DNA from: a virus
Taxonomy: Duplodnaviria; Caudoviricetes
Virus record (IMG/VR): IMGVR_UViG_3300049135_000061
Location: 1-45,741 of that record
Reading direction: 5' to 3' (one strand)
Length of the DNA stretch: 45,741 bases
Part shown: positions 1-45,741 of the stretch, piece after piece
Position numbering within the stretch: position 1 is the first letter of the stretch
Layout: the number at the start of each line of letters is the position of its first letter
Translations under genes and position numbers: made by a program
The notes under the pieces: model-generated
Told to the model about the DNA's origin: nothing
What the model saw: only the letters and a program-made list of their open reading frames with translations
Database searches by the model: none

Positions 1-127
1 CTTGATGAGTAGTCGGCCCGGCCTGATCCTCCGGGCCTGATCCTTTGGAGAGGGGATCATCATGCCGAACAACCTCACCCCCAACGTGCTCGCCGAGATC
101 ATCGACTGGGCGAGTGACTGCGCCGGG
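1..127. repeat. 127-bp direct terminal repeat (copy at 45615-45741); circular assembly overlap
   Basis: Bases 1-127 are identical to 45615-45741; 127 is a common assembler k-mer length. Confidence 0.9.
15..61 (+). repeat. Structured leader element copy 1 (P3+P4; a large upstream hairpin lies at 45542-45624 across the junction)
   Basis: GGCCCGG-cctgatcct-CCGGGCC then TGATCC-tttggagagg-GGATCA, then ATG at 62. Confidence 0.8.
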
Positions 128-247
128 TACCCCGGCGGCACGCAGATGAGCGCCGAGCGCGCCACGCAGTACGCCGAACGGCACTACCCCGGCGGCTTGA
201 AGGCCGCGCAGGAAGACTTCAACCTCGTGGCCAACACGCGGGGCTAA
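62..247 (+). CDS. Hypothetical early protein (61 aa)
   Basis: GGAGAGG RBS in the repeat element; GC3-rich codons. Confidence 0.8.
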   Translation: MPNNLTPNVLAEIIDWASDCAGYPGGTQMSAERATQYAERHYPGGLKAAQEDFNLVANTRG

Positions 248-250
248 TGA

Positions 251-354
251 CCTGTAAGAGCCATCGGGCCCACGTCTCGCACGTGGGCCCTGTTGGTTCC
301 GCAGGAACCACCGTGGCTGATTCCCACGGTTCGCATGATCTTTGGAGAGGGATC
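251..354 (+). repeat. Structured leader element copy 2
   Basis: cctgtaagagccatc; GGGCCCACGT/ACGTGGGCCC; TGGTTCC-gca-GGAACCA; CCGTGG-ctgattc-CCACGG; CATGATC-tttggagagg-GATCATG. Confidence 0.9.
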
Positions 355-753
355 ATGGAAGTCACTTACAGCGTGCTGACCGGCAAGCGCCGTTCGTACG
401 TGCTGGACAGCAGCAACCCGGACATGACGTGCCGGATTGCTTCTGAAACCGGCAGCTACACCTACCGCGAGTACGACGAGGTGAGCGCGGACGGCACGCC
501 GATGCGCGTGGTCGCCGTGCACCACGCAACGCGGGGCGATGTGCTGTCGTGCTGGTCCTGGGACCAGCCCCCGCTCACGGGGATGGTCGGTGGACTGCCC
601 GTCACCGCTCGGCCGCTCGGGCCCGGTAAGCCGTGCAAGCACGGCGCGTACGGCGACATGGCGACGTGGTCCATTTCGGACCCCATCGGGCACCTGGGGA
701 ACTTCTGCGATCGGCACATGCGGGTGGAGTACCCCGAACTCCAGGAGGCGTGA
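355..753 (+). CDS. Hypothetical early protein (MEVTYSVLTG...), C-terminal Cys/His motif
   Basis: Start reassigned to the ATG after the repeat RBS. Confidence 0.8.
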   Translation: MEVTYSVLTGKRRSYVLDSSNPDMTCRIASETGSYTYREYDEVSADGTPMRVVAVHHATRGDVLSCWSWDQPPLTGMVGGLPVTARPLGPGKPCKHGAYGDMATWSISDPIGHLGNFCDRHMRVEYPELQEA

Positions 754-755
754 GC

Positions 756-944
756 ATGGCTGACGACACGATTGCAGTAAGCGAACTCTGGCGCCGCTTG
801 GCCACCGTGCTGAGCGAGCTGGAAGCGGCGGGGGAGAACCCCTCCCCCCGAACCGAAGACGGATGGGCGTACGTGGTCGGCGGCTCCGGCGCGGTGCGCT
901 GGGATCCGGACACCAACGCTTGGGTAACGCAAGAGCTGTACTGA
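756..944 (+). CDS. Hypothetical protein (MADDTIAVSE...)
   Basis: GGAGG RBS; starts 2 nt after the upstream stop. Confidence 0.75.
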   Translation: MADDTIAVSELWRRLATVLSELEAAGENPSPRTEDGWAYVVGGSGAVRWDPDTNAWVTQELY

Positions 945-945
945 G

Positions 946-1051
946 CCTGTAAGAGCCATCGGGTTCACACCTTCGGGTGTGGGCCCTCTTGGTTCCGCAG
1001 GAACCACCGCGACTGATTATCGCGGTTTGTGATCTTTGGAGAGGGATCACC
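946..1051 (+). repeat. Structured leader element copy 3
   Basis: cctgtaagagccatc; P1 with cTTCGg tetraloop and G-U pairs; TGGTTCC-gca-GGAACCA; CCGCGA-ctgatta-TCGCGG; GTGATC-tttggagagg-GATCAC. Confidence 0.9.
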
Positions 1052-1288
1052 ATGGCATGGAAAGCATCACCTCAGCGCGCACGCTGGTACGGAGAGGTCA
1101 TCTTCGAGGGTGCCGACGGGGAAACCACGTACAACTACGGTTACTCCGCCAGCAAGGAAGAGCCCGACCTGGACTCGCTCGATTGCCTGATGCCCAAGGG
1201 TTACGAGGCCATCGAGCGGAAGATTCAGCCCACCCCGAGTAATGAGGCGTGGGAGGAATGGAACCAGTTGCGCAGCGACAGCGAGTGA
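1052..1288 (+). CDS. Hypothetical acidic early protein (MAWKASPQRA...)
   Basis: ATG follows the repeat RBS. Confidence 0.8.
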   Translation: MAWKASPQRARWYGEVIFEGADGETTYNYGYSASKEEPDLDSLDCLMPKGYEAIERKIQPTPSNEAWEEWNQLRSDSE

Positions 1289-1290
1289 CG

Positions 1291-1405
1291 CCCTGCTGAG
1301 CCATCGAGCGCACCTCTCGCAGGTGCGCTCCCTTGGTTCCGCAGTCCAGCGGGACACGCGCGGCTGATTACCGCGCGTCGGATCAGCCTTGGAGAGGGAC
1401 TGACC
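1291..1405 (+). repeat. Structured leader element copy 4
   Basis: ccctgctgagccatc; GAGCGCACCT/AGGTGCGCTC; ttggttccgcag; ACGCGCGG-ctgatta-CCGCGCGT; ttggagagg hairpin. Confidence 0.9.
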
Positions 1406-1654
1406 ATGAGTGGATACACCAACTGCGCGTGCCGTGACTGCATGGACGTTGCGATCACCGCCAATCAGGGCGGGTGGACGCTTTGCGCGGAATGCCTGGA
1501 CGCGGCGTGCACCCCCTACCCGCCCAGCACGGGCGAATGGCCGGGCAGGCGCCCGGAGGGCAACTACGACTGTCAGCGCGACGACGCGTACGGCGACGAC
1601 GTGGCCGACGCGGGCACCGGGCACGGTGCCTACGAGTACCGGTCCGGGCACTGA
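1406..1654 (+). CDS. Cys-rich hypothetical protein (CACRDC...CAEC)
   Basis: ORF follows the repeat RBS; CxxC pairs. Confidence 0.8.
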   Translation: MSGYTNCACRDCMDVAITANQGGWTLCAECLDAACTPYPPSTGEWPGRRPEGNYDCQRDDAYGDDVADAGTGHGAYEYRSGH

Positions 1655-1659
1655 TCACC

Positions 1660-1768
1660 CGCCGGAGCATCGGGCGCACCACATAGCGGGTGCGCCCCCT
1701 TGCTCTTACGGATGAGGGCACCGGCCGCTGATTACGGCCGGCAGATCTCTTTGGAGAGGGAGATCATC
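1660..1768 (+). repeat. Structured leader element copy 5 (variant P2)
   Basis: GGGCGCACC/GGTGCGCCC; TGCTCTTacggatGAGGGCA; CCGGCCG-ctgatta-CGGCCGG; GATCTC-tttggagagg-GAGATC. Confidence 0.9.
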
Positions 1769-2095
1769 ATGAGCGAGAACCTGGGCACCATCTGGGTCTG
1801 CATTGACTGCATGCTGCACCACGCCAACGGCGAGTGCGGCGGGTGTGACGACGACGAACGCGGGCACGACCAGGAGCCCCTGAGCCGCATTGCGGGCCCG
1901 CAGCACGTCGCCATGGGGATGGTGTGGGGCGAGCACTCCTGCGGTCGCGAGGTGGCCACGCAGGACGTGCCGGTACCTGATGACACGCCGCTGGAGTGCG
2001 ACTGCGAGACCAACACCTTCAGCACGTCGCGGTGCGAGGGGTGCGGCTCGTACCTGCACGGCGAGCGCCACGCCATGACGCTGTTCGCGAGCTGA
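1769..2095 (+). CDS. Cys-rich putative Zn-binding protein (MSENLGTIWVCIDC...)
   Basis: Several CxxC motifs; start after the repeat RBS. Confidence 0.8.
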   Translation: MSENLGTIWVCIDCMLHHANGECGGCDDDERGHDQEPLSRIAGPQHVAMGMVWGEHSCGREVATQDVPVPDDTPLECDCETNTFSTSRCEGCGSYLHGERHAMTLFAS

Positions 2096-2100
2096 GACAT

Positions 2101-2215
2101 CCGCCGGAGTGCCGGGCCGACTCACCGCCTGGTGAGTCGTGCCCGTGCTCTTACGGATGAGAGCACCCCGGGAGTGATTACCCGGGGTCCTGGTCTTCAT
2201 GGAGAGGGAAGATCA
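2101..2215 (+). repeat. Structured leader element copy 6 (variant P2)
   Basis: CGACTCACC/GGTGAGTCG; GTGCTCTTacggatGAGAGCAC; CCCGGG-agtgatta-CCCGGG; TGGTCTTC-atggagagg-GAAGATCA. Confidence 0.85.
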
Positions 2216-2479
2216 ATGAGCATCGAGACCACACTTGCCGCCGCTGTCGGTACGGAGTGGACGGTACGGAGCCGGTACGAGACGACAGATGGCGACCGTG
2301 TCGCCCTGCTGTGCCTGTACGCCCCGGAGGGGGACCGCTTCGCGGTCTCCTACTCCTACGGGTGGCCGCACTCGCCCCAGTTCATCGAGTACGCGAAGCG
2401 CGTGGACGCGTTCACCGCCTTCGTACGGAGCCTCAACCACGCCGAGCGTCGTGGCGTTGTGACGCACTGGGAGAGCTGA
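2216..2479 (+). CDS. Hypothetical protein (MSIETTLAAA...)
   Basis: ATG after the repeat RBS. Confidence 0.8.
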   Translation: MSIETTLAAAVGTEWTVRSRYETTDGDRVALLCLYAPEGDRFAVSYSYGWPHSPQFIEYAKRVDAFTAFVRSLNHAERRGVVTHWES

Positions 2480-2482
2480 CCC

Positions 2483-2653
2483 ATGGGCTCCCTGATCACG
2501 CTCCTGGTGCTCCTGGCCGGCGCCGCACCGCAGTGCGCCGAGGAAGACGGCTCCACGCAGCGCGTGTGCGTGTGGAGCGACGGCACGGGGGACACCGTGC
2601 TGAACCTGGACAACGGCACCTACTGGATCACGCTGGGCGGTGAGCGGCTGTGA
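2483..2653 (+). CDS. Small exported or membrane protein (56 aa, MGSLITLLVLLAGAAPQCAEEDGS...)
   Basis: Translated by hand (below ORF-track cutoff); hydrophobic N-terminus; GGAG RBS. Confidence 0.7.
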   Translation: MGSLITLLVLLAGAAPQCAEEDGSTQRVCVWSDGTGDTVLNLDNGTYWITLGGERL

Positions 2654-2802
2654 CCATCCGGGACTGGTGGCTCCAAGAGGCCCGCCGCTACCTGGCGCAT
2701 GCTCGAAGCAATCGCCACAGCCCGACGGTCTGGCATCAGGCCATGAGCGACGTGGCATGGTGCCGCCGCATGGCGCAGTGGACGTACAGCACTTTCGACT
2801 GA
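2650..2802 (+). CDS. Hypothetical protein (50 aa, MTIRDWWLQEARRYL...)
   Basis: GTGA overlap with the upstream stop; hand translated. Confidence 0.6.
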   Translation: MTIRDWWLQEARRYLAHARSNRHSPTVWHQAMSDVAWCRRMAQWTYSTFD

Positions 2803-2907
2803 CCCTGCCGGCCCAAGCCGAGCGCATCCCGTCCACCCCCCGGGGTGCGCTCCCTTGGTCTTGCAGATCAGCTTGACCTACGTGACCGATAGGAGAGGAT
2901 CGGCCGC
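2803..2907 (+). repeat. Degenerate structured leader element copy 7
   Basis: GAGCGCATCCC/GGGGTGCGCTC; ttggtc-ttgca-gatca; CCGAT-aggagagg-ATCGG; CTGATTA hairpin missing. Confidence 0.6.
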
Positions 2908-3144
2908 ATGAAGAAGTACACGAGCCCTGTCACGGCAGCAGACGTGACGGACGAGATGGTGAACATTGCCCTCGGAATTGTCGAAGGCTGGTACGACGAG
3001 GGCCGCATCGACTGGGAAGACGTCTGGGACCGCATGGACGGAGCGGAGTTGAACGACGGCACTTGGCTCGACATGGGCACCGATCTCCTGTCGCCGGCCC
3101 TGGCGAAAATCAAGAGCGAGGTACGCAAGGCGCGTCGCGTCTAG
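2908..3144 (+). CDS. Acidic hypothetical protein (78 aa)
   Basis: GGAGAGG RBS. Confidence 0.8.
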   Translation: MKKYTSPVTAADVTDEMVNIALGIVEGWYDEGRIDWEDVWDRMDGAELNDGTWLDMGTDLLSPALAKIKSEVRKARRV

Positions 3145-3163
3145 GTCAGGGAGGATCGGCCGC

Positions 3164-3376
3164 ATGAGTACGAGCAAGCCGGCAAAGCCGATGACCGTGG
3201 TGATCACGGTCGAGATTACGTTGCCCGACCCCGAGCAGTGGACCACCGCCTTTGGGATCGAGGGGCGCGCCGTGATTCGCCAGGACGTCAAGCAGTACGT
3301 GGCGAATCAGATCAGAGGTGAAGGCGTTTTCGGTGACGGTGAAGTCGCCGCCGAGGTGGCACTGCGCAACCCGTAA
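3164..3376 (+). CDS. Hypothetical protein (70 aa)
   Basis: GGAGG RBS. Confidence 0.8.
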   Translation: MSTSKPAKPMTVVITVEITLPDPEQWTTAFGIEGRAVIRQDVKQYVANQIRGEGVFGDGEVAAEVALRNP

Positions 3377-3380
3377 CGCT

Positions 3381-3498
3381 CCCTGCTGAGCCATCGAGCA
3401 CCCGTACACGCGACGGGTGCTCTTTTGGTTCCACAGGAACCACACCGCCGGCTGATTACCGGCGGCGCAGCACCTGCCTTTGGAGAGGGGCAGCAGTC
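3381..3498 (+). repeat. Structured leader element copy 8
   Basis: ccctgctgagccatc; GAGCACCCGT/ACGGGTGCTC; TGGTTCC-aca-GGAACCA; CCGCCGG-ctgatta-CCGGCGG; CTGCC-tttggagagg-GGCAG. Confidence 0.9.
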
Positions 3499-3954
3499 AT
3501 GCAACACATCATCGAACGTGCCTGGTACGGCACGGGACAGTACGCTCAGCGCACCATCAGCCCTGGGCAATGGGCGACGGAAATGCTCACCAGCCGAGCG
3601 AGCGGTGAGACGTCGTACCGCTGGACTGGGGAAGACCGGGAGGGAGCACGACTCCACGTCGTGTGGATCATCGACCCGGTGGGTCTCGCCACGCTCCTGG
3701 CGTACGAGATGTCCCTGGAGCCCCCGGCGGCGGACACACAGGGGCGTCTGGAGCGCGAGTTGCTTCGCCTTGACGGAGAGTACGAGCGCGCCACGGGACA
3801 CAACGCGTTCCTGTACGCCGACCACGGCGAGGGTGCAGGGCCCGGTGAGTACCACTTCACGGACAAGCGCGTCATGTACGGCGTGCGCAGCGCCCTGGCG
3901 CACATGAAGACCCTCATGCACGACTTGGCCACCGAGCTGGAGAGGAGCAAGTGA
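3499..3954 (+). CDS. Hypothetical protein (151 aa); N-terminal domain paralogous to the next gene
   Basis: ATG after the repeat RBS; IIERAW...WTGxDR motif. Confidence 0.8.
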   Translation: MQHIIERAWYGTGQYAQRTISPGQWATEMLTSRASGETSYRWTGEDREGARLHVVWIIDPVGLATLLAYEMSLEPPAADTQGRLERELLRLDGEYERATGHNAFLYADHGEGAGPGEYHFTDKRVMYGVRSALAHMKTLMHDLATELERSK

Positions 3955-4163
3955 CCATGGCTCAGATCATCGAGCGAGCGTGGCGCCTGGAGCGCGAAGT
4001 GAGTGCCCACGCGTTTGCCTCGGACATGGCGCACGCTCATCGCGAGCGGCTGTGCGTGTACGCATGGACCGGCACGGACCGTGCCAGTAACCCGCTCACG
4101 GTGGCATGGGTTGCCGGGCCACATCAGGGCACTGTCTTCAGCGCCTACGAGATCACTGACTAA
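3951..4163 (+). CDS. Hypothetical protein, paralog of the 3499 N-terminal domain
   Basis: GTGA overlap; IIERAW...WTGTDR motif. Confidence 0.8.
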   Translation: MTMAQIIERAWRLEREVSAHAFASDMAHAHRERLCVYAWTGTDRASNPLTVAWVAGPHQGTVFSAYEITD

Positions 4164-4398
4164 CCCCAAGCCCCCCGGCATCCCCCCTGCCGGGATGAGG
4201 AGCCCCTGCCCCCTCCCCGTGTCCAACGGGGCAGGGGCTCCGCCCCTCGCGTGTCCGTAACCGTCACATGCCCGCGTGCTCCGGTCCTCTCCCCGTTGAG
4301 CGCGCGGGTTTGTGGTGGCGCGGCCACCAACCCCCCGCCCGGCCTGTGGCACATCCCGGGCCGGCGGGCGGGGCCAACCGCTCCGAGGAGAGGGAGCC

Positions 4399-4533
4399 AT
4401 GCCCCAGCAGAGGGTGTACAAGCCCGTCAGGAAGCCCGCCACCGAGCGGGCGCAGCAGGACAAAAACGACGCCCCGAGCGGGCGTCAGGAGGTCCGGAAG
4501 GACGTACGCAAGACGTGGTGGCCCGAGGCATGA
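4399..4533 (+). CDS. Small basic hypothetical protein (44 aa, MPQQRVYKPV...)
   Basis: GGAGAGG RBS inside a short GCTC/GAGC hairpin, resembling a degenerate P4. Confidence 0.6.
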   Translation: MPQQRVYKPVRKPATERAQQDKNDAPSGRQEVRKDVRKTWWPEA

Positions 4534-5043: not shown

Positions 5044-5301
5044 TCAGGGAGCCGGCGTGAACGGCTCAGCGATGGCCCAGGACTCCGTCACCATGCGGAA
5101 CTGCCTGTGCTTACGCGTGTTGTTGTTGTGCTTCGCCGCATGCTGCAACGCCCAGCGCTCGGCGTGACCCGGGGTCGAGTACCCCACGGAAGCGTCGTGG
5201 CACGCGCCGCATACGGCGGAGTACACGGGCGGGTGAGCCTCGCGGGCAGTCAGGAGGCGCAGGCGCCACCGCGTATGGCGGACGACGGATCGGTTGTTCA
5301 T
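5044..5301 (-). CDS. Streptomyces-type small Zn-binding protein (CxxC...WALxH...H)
   Basis: Motif pattern typical of genes next to Streptomyces GntR/XRE regulators; ATGA overlap with the upstream gene. Confidence 0.7.
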   Translation of the reverse strand: MNNRSVVRHTRWRLRLLTAREAHPPVYSAVCGACHDASVGYSTPGHAERWALQHAAKHNNNTRKHRQFRMVTESWAIAEPFTPAP

Positions 5302-5519
5302 GTTCGCATCCCCCGGTTGTGCTCGTTGTACTCGCGCACCTGCTCCAGCAGAGCGGACGCAAGGGTCGCCGGCTCCACACGGCGACGATCCGCGTCCCAC
5401 ACCTCTCCTCCGCCCACCGGCTTGAGCATCACCGTGCGGCCGAAGATGTCGATCACCATTCCGACCTGGTTTGTGCTCGTGTCCCGCGCGTAATCACCGC
5501 GCTTGATTTCACTGCTCAC
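5298..5519 (-). CDS. Streptomyces-type hypothetical protein (RDT...VG.V....LKPVGGGEVW)
   Basis: Recognisable LxPxGGGxEW motif. Confidence 0.75.
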   Translation of the reverse strand: MSSEIKRGDYARDTSTNQVGMVIDIFGRTVMLKPVGGGEVWDADRRRVEPATLASALLEQVREYNEHNRGMRT

Positions 5520-5574: not shown

Positions 5575-5644
5575 CACCTATCCAGTGGTTCGGTCAGAGA
5601 GCTACGCTCCAAGTGACATGCACAGCCAAGACGTGGAGATATCG

Positions 5645-6376
5645 ATGGCACAGGGGAGCGAGACCGCGACGTACGTGCGCATCGCTGCGTACTACCGAGA
5701 GCAGATCTTGACCGGGGATCTGAAGCCAGGAACGAAGCTCCCGAGCAACAAGGAGATGGCCCAGCGCTGGTCCGTAGCTGTGGCCACGCTCCAGAAGGCG
5801 CTCGGACAGCTCACGGTGGAAGGACTGCTGCGCACCAGCCCGCGCGGGACCTTCGTGGCCGATGACCCCGTGGCCGGCGTGGCCGCGAAGGACCGGCTGC
5901 GCCGGTCCCAGCAGACCCGCTCCGTCCTCATGGACGGCGAGACTGCCGCCGTAACGGCGGCAGAGCTGGTCGTACCCCCGCTGTACGTGGCGGAGATCTT
6001 CCACCTGGACCACGGCGATCAGGTGGTACGCCGGGAGTTCACCACCGGACGTGGCAAGACCCGCGTCTCTTTCCAGGTGCGCTGGTACCCGGCGCACTTC
6101 GCGGCCCTGGTGCCGGACCTGCTGAGCACCAGCAGCAAGAAAAACGACGACTTGACCCCGCGCGTCCTGGACGCCACCGGCCGACAGATCACGTACGCAC
6201 GGGATGACATGCACGGCAGGGACGCCGACGCCCGGGAGGCGTCAGCCCTCGGTATCGCCGTGGGCTCGCCGATTCTGGCCGGCGCACACCGCTGGGCCGA
6301 TGACGAAGGTGTCATCGAGTACGGCGAATGGTGCCTGCCGCCACGCATGACCATCGGATACGAGTACCAGCCGTAG
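5645..6376 (+). CDS. GntR-family (HutC/UTRA) transcriptional regulator; candidate repressor
   Basis: YVRIAAYYREQILTGDLKPGTKLPS wHTH and a C-terminal UTRA-like region (...VIEYGE); GGAG RBS. Confidence 0.9.
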   Translation: MAQGSETATYVRIAAYYREQILTGDLKPGTKLPSNKEMAQRWSVAVATLQKALGQLTVEGLLRTSPRGTFVADDPVAGVAAKDRLRRSQQTRSVLMDGETAAVTAAELVVPPLYVAEIFHLDHGDQVVRREFTTGRGKTRVSFQVRWYPAHFAALVPDLLSTSSKKNDDLTPRVLDATGRQITYARDDMHGRDADAREASALGIAVGSPILAGAHRWADDEGVIEYGEWCLPPRMTIGYEYQP

Positions 6377-6537: not shown

Positions 6538-6747
6538 CGGGAACCGTGAGAGACGCCATGCCAGCATCCGCGCCGCTTCCACAGGCCGCTACCTGGACGC
6601 GGGAACAGGTCCTGGTGAGTTTCGCTCCAACCGCATCTCAGGAGGAGCCGTAAGGGTCTGGCCAGCCTGAACCTGATCAAGTGGCCGCCCGACCCCTGCC
6701 GAGTTCCTGCCGGCAGGGGTCTTCATCATCCGAGGAGAGGAAAGAGC

Positions 6748-20234: not shown

Positions 20235-20395
20235 AGCGCTACACGTTCACATGCGTCCTGTCCGAGGTACCGGACGACGACGACAACCCGGAGCGGTTCG
20301 TTCGCCTGGCGCTGACGTACGGCGACAAGCACCAGGACTTCGTCATGCATCGGGAGGGCGAGGTTCTGGTGGAGAGTTACGAGGAGGGCGAGTGA
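20231..20395 (+). CDS. Acidic hypothetical protein (54 aa)
   Basis: Hand translated; GGAGG RBS; GTGA overlap. Confidence 0.6.
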   Translation: MKRYTFTCVLSEVPDDDDNPERFVRLALTYGDKHQDFVMHREGEVLVESYEEGE

Positions 20396-20619
20396 TGGCC
20401 GCTGACCGCGAGTGGTTCATGGTCGAGAAGCCGAACGGCAACTCTGCCGATGGCAAGGAGTACCCCAATAAGGAGGCCGCCGCGCAGGCGGCCAGACTCC
20501 TTGCTCCGGAGTGCAACGAGCGCCTGACCGTCGTGAAGTACACCCGCAAGGAGGTGCGCACTTTTACCCGGAACGTCACGATCGCCGAGGCGGACATAGG
20601 CACTGCCACCCCGGCATGA
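20395..20619 (+). CDS. Hypothetical protein (MAADREWFMV...)
   Basis: GGAGG RBS; TGATG coupling. Confidence 0.7.
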   Translation: MAADREWFMVEKPNGNSADGKEYPNKEAAAQAARLLAPECNERLTVVKYTRKEVRTFTRNVTIAEADIGTATPA

Positions 20620-20624
20620 GAAGA

Positions 20625-20700
20625 TGGCAGCTCCCTCTCCAAGGGAAGCTGCTCCGTTCGGGCCGGCCTAATCACCCGGCCCACCTCTTGCGGAGCATGC
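20625..20700 (-). repeat. Orphan antisense copy of the early leader element
   Basis: Minus strand reads GGCCGG-gtgattagg-CCGGCC then CAGCTTCC-cttggagagg-GAGCTG. Confidence 0.55.
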
Positions 20701-20701
20701 A

Positions 20702-20735
20702 GAAGCCCCCGGCCTTCGGGCCGGGGGCTTTTTTG
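20702..20735. terminator. Terminator between the convergent early and late arms (probably bidirectional)
   Basis: AAGCCCCCGGCC-ttcg-GGCCGGGGGCTTTTTT. Confidence 0.9.
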
Positions 20736-44988: not shown

Positions 44989-45018
44989 TTGACTCACATG
45001 TTGCTTGAAGCGCAGTCT
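44989..45018 (+). promoter_or_regulatory. Candidate host sigma70-type early promoter
   Basis: TTGACT-N18-CAGTCT after an AT-rich tract, pointing toward the early genes. Confidence 0.4.
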
Positions 45019-45741
45019 TGGACCACGCCGCAAGGGGGCACCGGAAACGGGAGCAACCGGGCGGAGTCGAGGGACATGAACGTGCCCGCCTTCACGGGTT
45101 GTTCACAGACCTCACAGCACCACCGGCCGACTGGCTTACACGCCGATCGGCACGGGAGAGGCAGATGTGGCCCGTTGGCCATCAGACCCGGTGCGAGAGA
45201 ACCAAGACACAGGTCCACCCGGCAGCGTTCGAGCGTTAACCGGGTGAGCGCATTGGCGCTGAGAGCGTGTACCCGAGCGGATCAGGCGAGATCCGCGACG
45301 ACCGGCACGCGATAGGACTTGGGCGGTACTGATCCCCCGTACCGCCGCACCCGTGAGGGCCAGCAACGGCGTTGTGCGCCGCGTCCAGACCGGGAGACGT
45401 CAAGGGGAGCGTGACCGTGCGGCTTCAGGTAGCCGTACAGGGTCACACACAGACGTTGACAGGCGCCGATGGCGCGGCCCGGCAAGCGGGGCCCACAGCA
45501 TCACTGGACGGCCCTCAGGGCCGCGTACAGCGGCGCCTGTCACTCGTCATGCGGGCAGGGGTGCAACCCCATTCGCTCGGGATGAGCTGGACGCATGCTC
45601 GGCATCCCTGCCCGCTTGATGAGTAGTCGGCCCGGCCTGATCCTCCGGGCCTGATCCTTTGGAGAGGGGATCATCATGCCGAACAACCTCACCCCCAACG
45701 TGCTCGCCGAGATCATCGACTGGGCGAGTGACTGCGCCGGG

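Follow-up and report, generated by a model that had tools for sequence, protein, structure and literature searches.

Introduction

Early mRNAs of bacteriophages T7 and SPO1 carry RNase III-type sites. In T7 there are five such signals, of the R1.1 type (PMC3867540, PMC1540722). They are intercistronic two-turn hairpins with an internal loop and an upper helix of ∼10–11 bp, in an early operon of small genes. Here we describe a repeated RNA element that shares these traits. It separates the small genes of an array in viral record IMGVR_UViG_3300049135_000061, whose 45,741 nt we refer to as the window. The window is a complete circular phage contig of 45,614 bp with a 127-nt overlap of its ends. 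In addition to the long hairpin, the window element has a conserved alternative fold (P2), a hairpin with a phage-specific loop (P3) and a hairpin that holds the Shine–Dalgarno sequence (SD) in its loop (P4), all of which set it apart from the T7 signals.

Antisense RNAs of phages provide a second comparison. The c4 RNA of P1 and P7 and the CI RNA of P4 act in trans, and small loop changes give them phage specificity. Each has two exposed segments complementary to targets at ribosome-binding sites (RBS), and a two-hairpin module of the window, at 20626–20682, is predicted to be alike. The family names c4 (RF01695) and c4-a1b1 appear in a table of PMC2864571. Whereas c4 has one operon as its target, the window module would have up to eight targets, embedded in processing-like elements, and its place is the 3′-terminal part of the replication operon. 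The Rfam C4 model had no match in the window or in the related loci searched.

Two further systems resemble the element in form. Actino-pnp (RF01688, rpsO–pnp), listed in PMC2864571, is likewise an irregular, GC-rich long hairpin, found in the likely host genus, and Streptomyces RNase III cuts it at the internal loop (PMC10126417). It differs from the window element in sequence and loop pattern, and the element has no RF01688 match. The cluster BF phages WRightOn, Immanuel3 and FlowerPower have the same genome layout, and long irregular hairpins sit next to the stop codons between the small genes of their right arm. These hairpins are similar in shape and occupy the same slots but have another sequence, and most of the gaps lack a P3 loop or an SD-in-loop P4. 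The nucleotide profile (nhmmer) found no match in these phages (best E 0.35), and their best covariance-model match scored 22.5 bits. In their right arms (L393–L395; L or G with a number denotes a locus or genome compared here), the long intergenic hairpins are unannotated, and an anti-SD stretch of the first leader pairs with the SD of the first gene.

Results

Fold and covariation of the element

An iterated nucleotide profile detected the element in 47 loci counting duplicates, and in 31 loci besides the window once duplicates were removed. We anchored 90 element rows on the upper stem, of which 58 had the canonical shape. Alignment A4 comprised 56 rows hand-picked for this shape, and its counts therefore lean toward it.

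A first-pass annotation of the window had described each copy as a leader followed by four hairpins, P1 to P4. The copies that it listed all lie where it placed them, each between a stop codon and the following ATG (Table 1), and every copy folds much better than its shuffles (z −2.8 to −5.6). The four-hairpin form is not, however, the predicted ground state. In the lowest-energy folds of c2–c7, the 5′ arm and loop of P2 are taken up by pairing with the presumed leader, giving one long hairpin; the minimum-energy fold of c8 retains P2. The long hairpin is irregular, ∼22 bp in length, and its plan is fixed across the 90 rows: five outer positions, two mismatched positions, a middle helix of 5–6 bp, a 2 × 3 internal loop and the upper stem. 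The lower stem thus comprises 12 positions with two mismatches. The upper stem measured 10–11 bp in 52 of the 58 canonical rows, and the outer stem began 1–6 nt past the stop codon in 54 of them. The internal loop read UC on one side in 55 of 56 rows and YNU on the other in all 56.

Covariation carries this fold. In A4 (n = 56), double-sided changes occurred at 17 of the 22 pairs, and the covariation score was 0.538, as compared to 0.209 for shuffled alignments and no more than 0.152 for slid ones. Taken alone, the middle helix between leader and arm was 90.8% paired, with compensation at five of six pairs and 58 double-sided cells. Wobble pairs were biased (76 G–U versus 5 A–C in A4), as was UUCG (6 versus 1), and both biases favour the + strand RNA as the selected structure. 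The first-pass proposal of selection on + strand RNA structure is thereby borne out, and the invariant part of the element is the long hairpin with its 2 × 3 loop. One result speaks against the full hairpin: RNAalifold, run unaided on the alignment, recovered the upper stem only, because type-1 copies shift the outer register.

P2 belongs to an alternative fold. The freed 3′ arm re-pairs downstream in 54 of the 58 canonical rows, versus 32 ± 3 with swapped partners. When the leader was blocked in silico, the window copies took the four-hairpin form exactly, at a cost of 6–7 kcal/mol (five of five copies tested). Based on the covariation, the re-pairing and the blocked-leader folds, the long hairpin and the P2 fold are both conserved and are mutually exclusive. 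P4, in which the SD is held in the loop and the AUG-adjacent bases are buried in the stem, is the same in both folds.

Two exclusive folds might also constitute a nuclease-free, translation-coupled switch. In such a switch, the terminating ribosome would melt the outer helix and the arm would flip to P2, controlling readthrough or initiation at the next gene, with P1 and its pyrimidine-rich tail as a weak terminator. The closeness of the outer stem to the stop codon and the small energy difference between the folds agree with this, and a terminator scan flagged P1 of c2, c3, c5 and c8. A switch nevertheless leaves the fixed 10–11-bp ruler and the invariant UC/YNU loop unexplained. Moreover, P4 is a separate hairpin unaffected by the choice of fold, and some elements lack P3 and lead directly into the SD (L296, L330 and G365). 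We judge a switch of this kind unlikely.

Table 1. Coordinates of the element copies and other features of the window.
Feature	Position	Strand	Basis or remark
c1: P3 (loop CCUGAUCCU), P4 with SD in loop, ATG 62	15..61	+	sequence, fold
13 small array genes, 50–151 aa	62..4163	+	two with unnamed PHROG matches; none with a Pfam match over the curated cut-off
c2: long hairpin 251–305, alternative P2 294–310, P3 311–329 (CUGAUUC), P4 335–356, ATG 355	251..357	+	fold; covariance model 68 bits, training member
c3: full element, cUUCGg cap, P3 loop CUGAUUA, ATG 1052	946..1054	+	fold, covariance model
c4: full element, P3 loop CUGAUUA, ATG 1406	1291..1408	+	fold, covariance model
c5: type-2 element (GGAGCA/UGCUCU), P3 loop CUGAUUA, ATG 1769	1657..1771	+	fold, covariance model
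c6: variant element, P3 loop AGUGAUUA, ATG 2216	2098..2218	+	covariance model 23.8 bits, E 3e-4, outside training set
c7: long hairpin and SD hairpin, no P3, ATG 2908	2803..2910	+	covariance model 38 bits, E 2e-8, outside training set
c8: full element, P3 loop CUGAUUA, ATG 3499	3381..3501	+	fold, covariance model
Two paralogues of a small beta-beta-alpha-beta-beta-beta family (WxGEDR...AYE), 3499–3714 and 3957–4163	3499..4163	+	usually last in array
Two GC-rich array-closing hairpins, terminator-like, no U tract	4174..4241	+	fold; similar in L152, L181, L114
Post-array structured block: long stem with anti-SD tip CCUCUCCCC (4286), GUGGCAC-loop hairpin (4346), SD hairpin, ATG 4400	4250..4402	+	fold
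Module hairpin 1, shows CUCUCCAA, complement of P4 SD loop UUGGAGAGG	20626..20652	+	sequence, fold
Module hairpin 2, loop CCUAAUCAC, complement of P3 loop (G/C)UGAUUA	20660..20682	+	sequence, fold
Strong intrinsic-terminator-like hairpin (cUUCGg, U6), ends replication operon, faces late operon	20703..20734	+	fold
Candidate early promoter (TTGACT, 18 nt, CAGTCT)	44989..45018	+	hexamers in sequence; inferred
First-element long stem (CACUCGUCA ... UUGAUGAGU), ∼20 bp, runs into window 1–10	45541..45624	+	fold

Comparison with RNase III sites

RNase III substrates span ∼22 bp, with a minimum helix of ∼11 bp, and internal loops drive the enzyme toward single-strand cuts (PMC3867540, PMC1540722). The element offers a helix of this length whose upper stem supplies 10–11 bp on one side of the loop, and compensatory changes conserve it on the transcribed strand. 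This geometry supports the analogy to T7 and SPO1 processing drawn in the first-pass annotation. By its geometry, though not by the E. coli sequence rules, the element is a candidate member of the T7-type processing signals and likely acts like one.

We propose that a conserved + strand RNA module fills each spacer; as the covariation shows, its long hairpin forms directly past the stop codon. Host RNase III would cut the hairpin at the central 2 × 3 loop and so split the early transcript into single-gene messages, a step that we regard as somewhat probable. In S. coelicolor, RNase III favours poly(G)–poly(C), and it cuts a [4/4] internal loop on both of its sides (PMC10126417). Once the leader is lost, the freed 3′ arm would refold into P2, as it does in silico, and shield the processed 5′ end from RNase J. 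S. coelicolor RNase J prefers 5′-monophosphate ends (PMC10126417), so that a hairpin at such an end would be of benefit. P1 or upstream hairpins would cap the 3′ ends of the processed messages. PMC4838370 and PMC4681348 provide general context.

Several observations weigh against cleavage by RNase III. The antideterminant rules for the E. coli proximal box (PMC1540722), which allow no G–C at position 2 or by the cut, do not hold for the element. With the cut register assumed to be centred on the loop, G–C or C–G stood at proximal-box position 2 in 41 and 49 of 56 rows, and G–C stood beside the loop in all 56. These rules are defined for the E. coli enzyme, and the Streptomyces enzyme prefers G–C. 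In double-cut sites of E. coli, the central positions are ∼90% paired (PMC6212723). Finally, the element is no copy of the pnp hairpin of the host.

The P3 loop

The first-pass annotation viewed CUGAUUA as a loop recognised by a phage or host factor. The heptamer is enriched in the window (CTGATTA, 4 occurrences versus 0.76 expected) and is exact in four of the seven copies that bear P3. The remaining three read CCTGATCCT (c1), CTGATTC (c2) and AGTGATTA (c6), and c7 has no P3. The SD-loop sequence TTGGAGAGG is exact at 45, 342, 1036, 1389, 1751 and 3480.

Comparison with relatives showed that each phage uses one P3 loop type across its elements and that the types differ between phages. The loop is UGAUUA in the window and L114; UGAUGA in L152, L181, L166, L248 and L272; UGAUCC in L245, L324, L354 and G152; GUGGCAC in L258, L277, L278, L327, L332 and L261; GUGCCAC in L259, L279, L325, L326, L331 and others; and CGGCAU in L270 and L295. 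L143, L286, L347 and G074 have none. The loop can also cap P1 or the first stem. On a terminase tree of 35 rows, none omitted, the loop types are scattered. CUGAUUA as a fixed recognition loop is not supported, the loop varying by phage and being missing in some: rather than a constant, the P3 loop is an address of the individual phage.

The UGAUGA type raised the question of a self-cleaving ribozyme. CUGAUGA occurs in the hammerhead core, and it is the P3 loop in some relatives. There, however, it sits in a closed hairpin loop that is lineage-variable or missing, with no GAAA core and no Rfam match, and a ribozyme is most improbable.

The best candidate for the factor that reads the P3 loop in the window phage appears to be the complementary RNA of 20626–20682 and not a protein.

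A proposed antisense module at 20626–20682

The module lies 16 kb from the array, between the last gene of the replication operon (20395–20619) and the cUUCGg/U6 terminator. The sole minus-strand occurrence of TTGGAGAGG in the window (20634) and one of its two minus-strand TGATTA occurrences (20674) fall there, 40 nt apart. The inverted pair CCUCUCCA..UAAUCA is unique in the window, and none of 300 shuffles contained it. Like c4 and CI RNAs, the module exposes, according to sequence and predicted fold, two segments complementary to target sites at an RBS, and its two hairpins follow each other in the order that antiparallel docking on P3 and P4 requires. A second inverted UGAUUA hairpin, at 5486–5502 inside the start of the minus-strand open reading frame (ORF) 5298–5519, may be due to chance.

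We located the module at the equivalent place in 11 relatives (L114, L152, L181, L166, L245, L324, L328, L331, L327, L325 and L270). It is degenerate in L326 and L259, takes another form in L143, and was not located within the stretches examined of L277, L279, L286, L176, L237, G152 and G399. A scan of 119 viral loci with the module pattern added two UGAUG-type contigs, neither with a linked array. Eight UGAU-type phages have both parts, and in every one of them the anti-loop is complementary to the P3 loop of that same phage: UAAUCA with UGAUUA, UCAUCA with UGAUGA and GAUCA with UGAUCC. Six of these matches were scored by script and two, L114 and L328, were read by eye, the latter from a single remaining element. 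Among UGAU phages, complementarity was highest to the phage's own module (window, 6.0 versus 4.0–4.2 nt; UGAUG, 7 versus 4–5; UGAUC, 5 versus 4).

We suggest that a kissing interaction with both loops blocks translation of the whole array, the partner being either the 3′-terminal RNA of the replication operon or a small RNA arising at that place. For the window phage this proposal is tentative, falling somewhat short of an even chance. The translation block would act as an early shut-off or in the lysogen.

Other data count against such docking. The eight matches correspond to only ∼2–3 independent co-changes on the terminase tree. The anti-loop misfits P3 in all four GUGSCAC or CGGCAU phages with an intact module (L331, L327, L325 and L270; 3 nt in the three that were scored, L270 by eye); their modules keep a UCAUCAC-like loop. 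Duplex energies were better than those of shuffles in only four of the seven UGAU phages scored. Comparison of the strands of the module gave 15 G–U pairs on + and 12 on −, with mixed energies. Finally, the module is absent at the terminator in six relatives (L258, L330, L296, L293, G365 and G074).

A protein site would account for some of these data. P3 would then be bound by a phage protein, either as an RNA hairpin loop or as a pseudo-palindromic DNA operator or stoperator, and the copy at 20660 would be one more such site, pointing the same way as the late operon. The loops are near-palindromic, GUGGCAC and GUGCCAC being mutual reverse complements, and their place may be P3, P1 or the first stem. 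An anti-loop that matches is lacking in GUGSCAC phages, and the window phage encodes a GntR/UTRA repressor. By contrast, the stems vary freely yet remain paired, and the inverted copy is accompanied by an anti-SD hairpin, while the minus strand there has no canonically spaced start (ATG or GTG 14–23 nt off, or none). Nor did any protein cluster follow loop type when those of the array, as distinct from regulators elsewhere, were checked for a cognate RNA-binding protein. On balance, we consider a protein site rather unlikely.

The misfitting phages may point to an older target of the antisense module. L331 and L327 have a UGAUGA hairpin just past a tRNA-like gene downstream of the array; in L327 this hairpin directly precedes the first gene of the replication operon. 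L152, L166 and L181 have a UGAUGA hairpin ahead of that gene, and the first element holds UGAUGAG; the window has no such leader hairpin before 6748. These leaders may therefore have been the ancestral target, and the array may have been recruited in UGAU phages. In GUGSCAC phages, a genome-wide hairpin scan for anti-loops yielded, among the matches listed, scattered candidates, one of them strong (L451, 10438), and no conserved site. In the GUGCCAC and CGGCAU phages L425, L428, L434 and L436, an extra conserved element stands between module and terminator at the 3′ end of the replication operon. It consists of GCGCAGCGCC, a hairpin and then, in three of the four, GAAACGUGGUCCAC; its GAAAC recalls a ribozyme core.

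Taken together, processing sites combined with antisense docking at the P3 and RBS loops form an explanation to which we give an even chance. Its stronger version seems doubtful: that the early transcript would be cut into single-gene messages, whereupon one trans-acting RNA would kiss the P3 and SD loops and shut all cassettes, loop and anti-loop co-evolving.

Array genes and gene order

The predicted structure of a WxGEDR...AYE family member (Table 1) is confident (pLDDT 88) and had no Foldseek match at E ≤ 0.001. The family has 88 representatives at E ≤ 0.001, with invariant D–R and Y–E. A RegB/BrnT-like nuclease identity for the family of the 3957 protein found no support in Pfam, PDB sequence or Foldseek searches; Atlas feature scores of 0.81–0.84 for a BECR/RegB-like reading of this protein are a lead only.

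As the first-pass annotation had suggested checking, gene content between elements varies among relatives, which draw on a shared pool in differing order. Its further idea, that the repeats shuffle genes, fared less well. An element and its gene form a unit common to L166 and window 1652–2086 (74% identity). However, near-identical strains in contigs of four other soil runs differed by one single-nucleotide polymorphism, one 3-nt insertion and one weak joint with 22-nt sides, with no credible element-bounded loss or joint. The common pool and the joint movement of element and gene could indicate that the elements serve mainly for cassette shuffling, either as attC-like DNA recombination sites or as patches of homology. 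Against this stand the strong RNA-strand bias, the lack of a credible element-bounded joint and the finding that the serine integrase is the only recombinase among 39 ORFs scanned, and we hold this account to be very improbable. Shuffling is probably a by-product of the repeated elements. An integron cassette array was considered separately. AttC arrays have a tyrosine integron integrase and R-box sites that fold on the bottom strand. We rejected this candidate, as no such integrase was found among the 39 ORFs and the fold favours the top strand as RNA, not the attC bottom strand.

Limits of the array

The array starts after the candidate early promoter, which lies ∼650 nt ahead of the first array gene on the circular map. 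Similar hexamer pairs occur at the equivalent position in L152, L181 and L114; a strict sigma-70 scan did not pick up the candidate. A long non-coding leader follows at 45027–45540 (+), with several hairpins, among them a UGAUCC loop at 45330. Parts of it are kept in L152 and L181, and it could act as an antitermination or regulatory RNA.

Both ends of the array needed reinterpretation. Copy c1 is not truncated: on the circular contig a different long stem stands ahead of it. This stem is kept in L152, L114, L181, G001, G163 and G399. At the other end, where the array closes at its two GC-rich hairpins, the supposed P4-only remnant near 4380 belongs to a larger structured block, 4174–4400, whose end it forms. 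The tip of the long stem after the array terminator carries the anti-SD CCUCUCC (window 4286–4294), which is found in 19 of 23 loci, at most 2.6 kb past the last element. This second anti-SD loop may have the following SD as its target in cis.

Phage genome and relatives

The window encodes a serine integrase, a GntR/UTRA repressor, WhiB, a helicase, a primase and a minus-strand structural block. The capsid and terminase are ∼59% and ∼51% identical, respectively, to those of lytic cluster BF (Beephvirinae) Streptomyces phages. Closer relatives, at 62–85% terminase identity, occur in many metagenomic contigs and in the genomes of eight bacteria, of which seven are Streptomyces; the Streptomyces composti and S. 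himalayensis prophages are examples of the family. From these relatives and the likeness to BF phages we infer Streptomyces as the host, and the source appears to be a soil phage related to Streptomyces phages.

The regulator slot is swapped between relatives: GntR/UTRA occupies it in the window (5585–6376) and L114, and a different two-gene pair in L152 (8070–8980) and L181 (9216–10097), which we take to resemble DUF5753/DUF397. A conserved structured non-coding motif (GGUGAGUUUCGCUCC ... GGUCUGGCCAGCCUGAACC ... UGGCC) lies at ∼6610–6690 (+), ahead of a ParB-like gene. It is common to L152, L166, L181, L233, L248, L446 and G157, had no Rfam match at the gathering threshold, and is replaced in other relatives by a tRNA-like gene in this slot. 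The ParB-like query had no match in the genome contigs searched.

Distribution and significance

The element matches no Rfam family, in line with the first-pass failure to recognise one: there were no gathering-level matches in the window and six related loci, and chance matches only at relaxed E. No GenBank phage matched the element. The 110 single-match loci of a first pattern scan (CTGATTA..TTTGGAGAGG) were rejected, as the profile recognised none of them. The covariance model matched 11 of 151 genomes of the genus at E ≤ 0.001 and gave no strong host-chromosome match in five lysogen genomes. Two of the 11, G062 and G125, are not shown to belong to the window phage's family. These Streptomyces genomes, not shown to hold its terminase, carry single strong element copies with other downstream loops (L406 in G062; L407 and L479 in G125), which may reflect spread of the element to further mobile elements.

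We found no published description of phage-specific loops with a co-varying complementary RNA in a search that left out the motif sequences of the Fremin catalogue (PMC10690425), so overlap is possible; the catalogue lists Streptomyces-host motifs such as DNAVirus_1060. Phage-specific loops with a complementary RNA are the apparent layer added to known processing sites. The hairpin family provides at least 56 natural variants of fixed geometry. If the antisense proposal is true, the module would be a multi-target, phage-specific RNA repressor in an actinophage, and its natural orthogonal loop pairs could find use as Streptomyces regulatory parts. In the stronger version, the repressor RNA of one phage would go unrecognised by its relatives, and genes captured behind an element would join the regulon.

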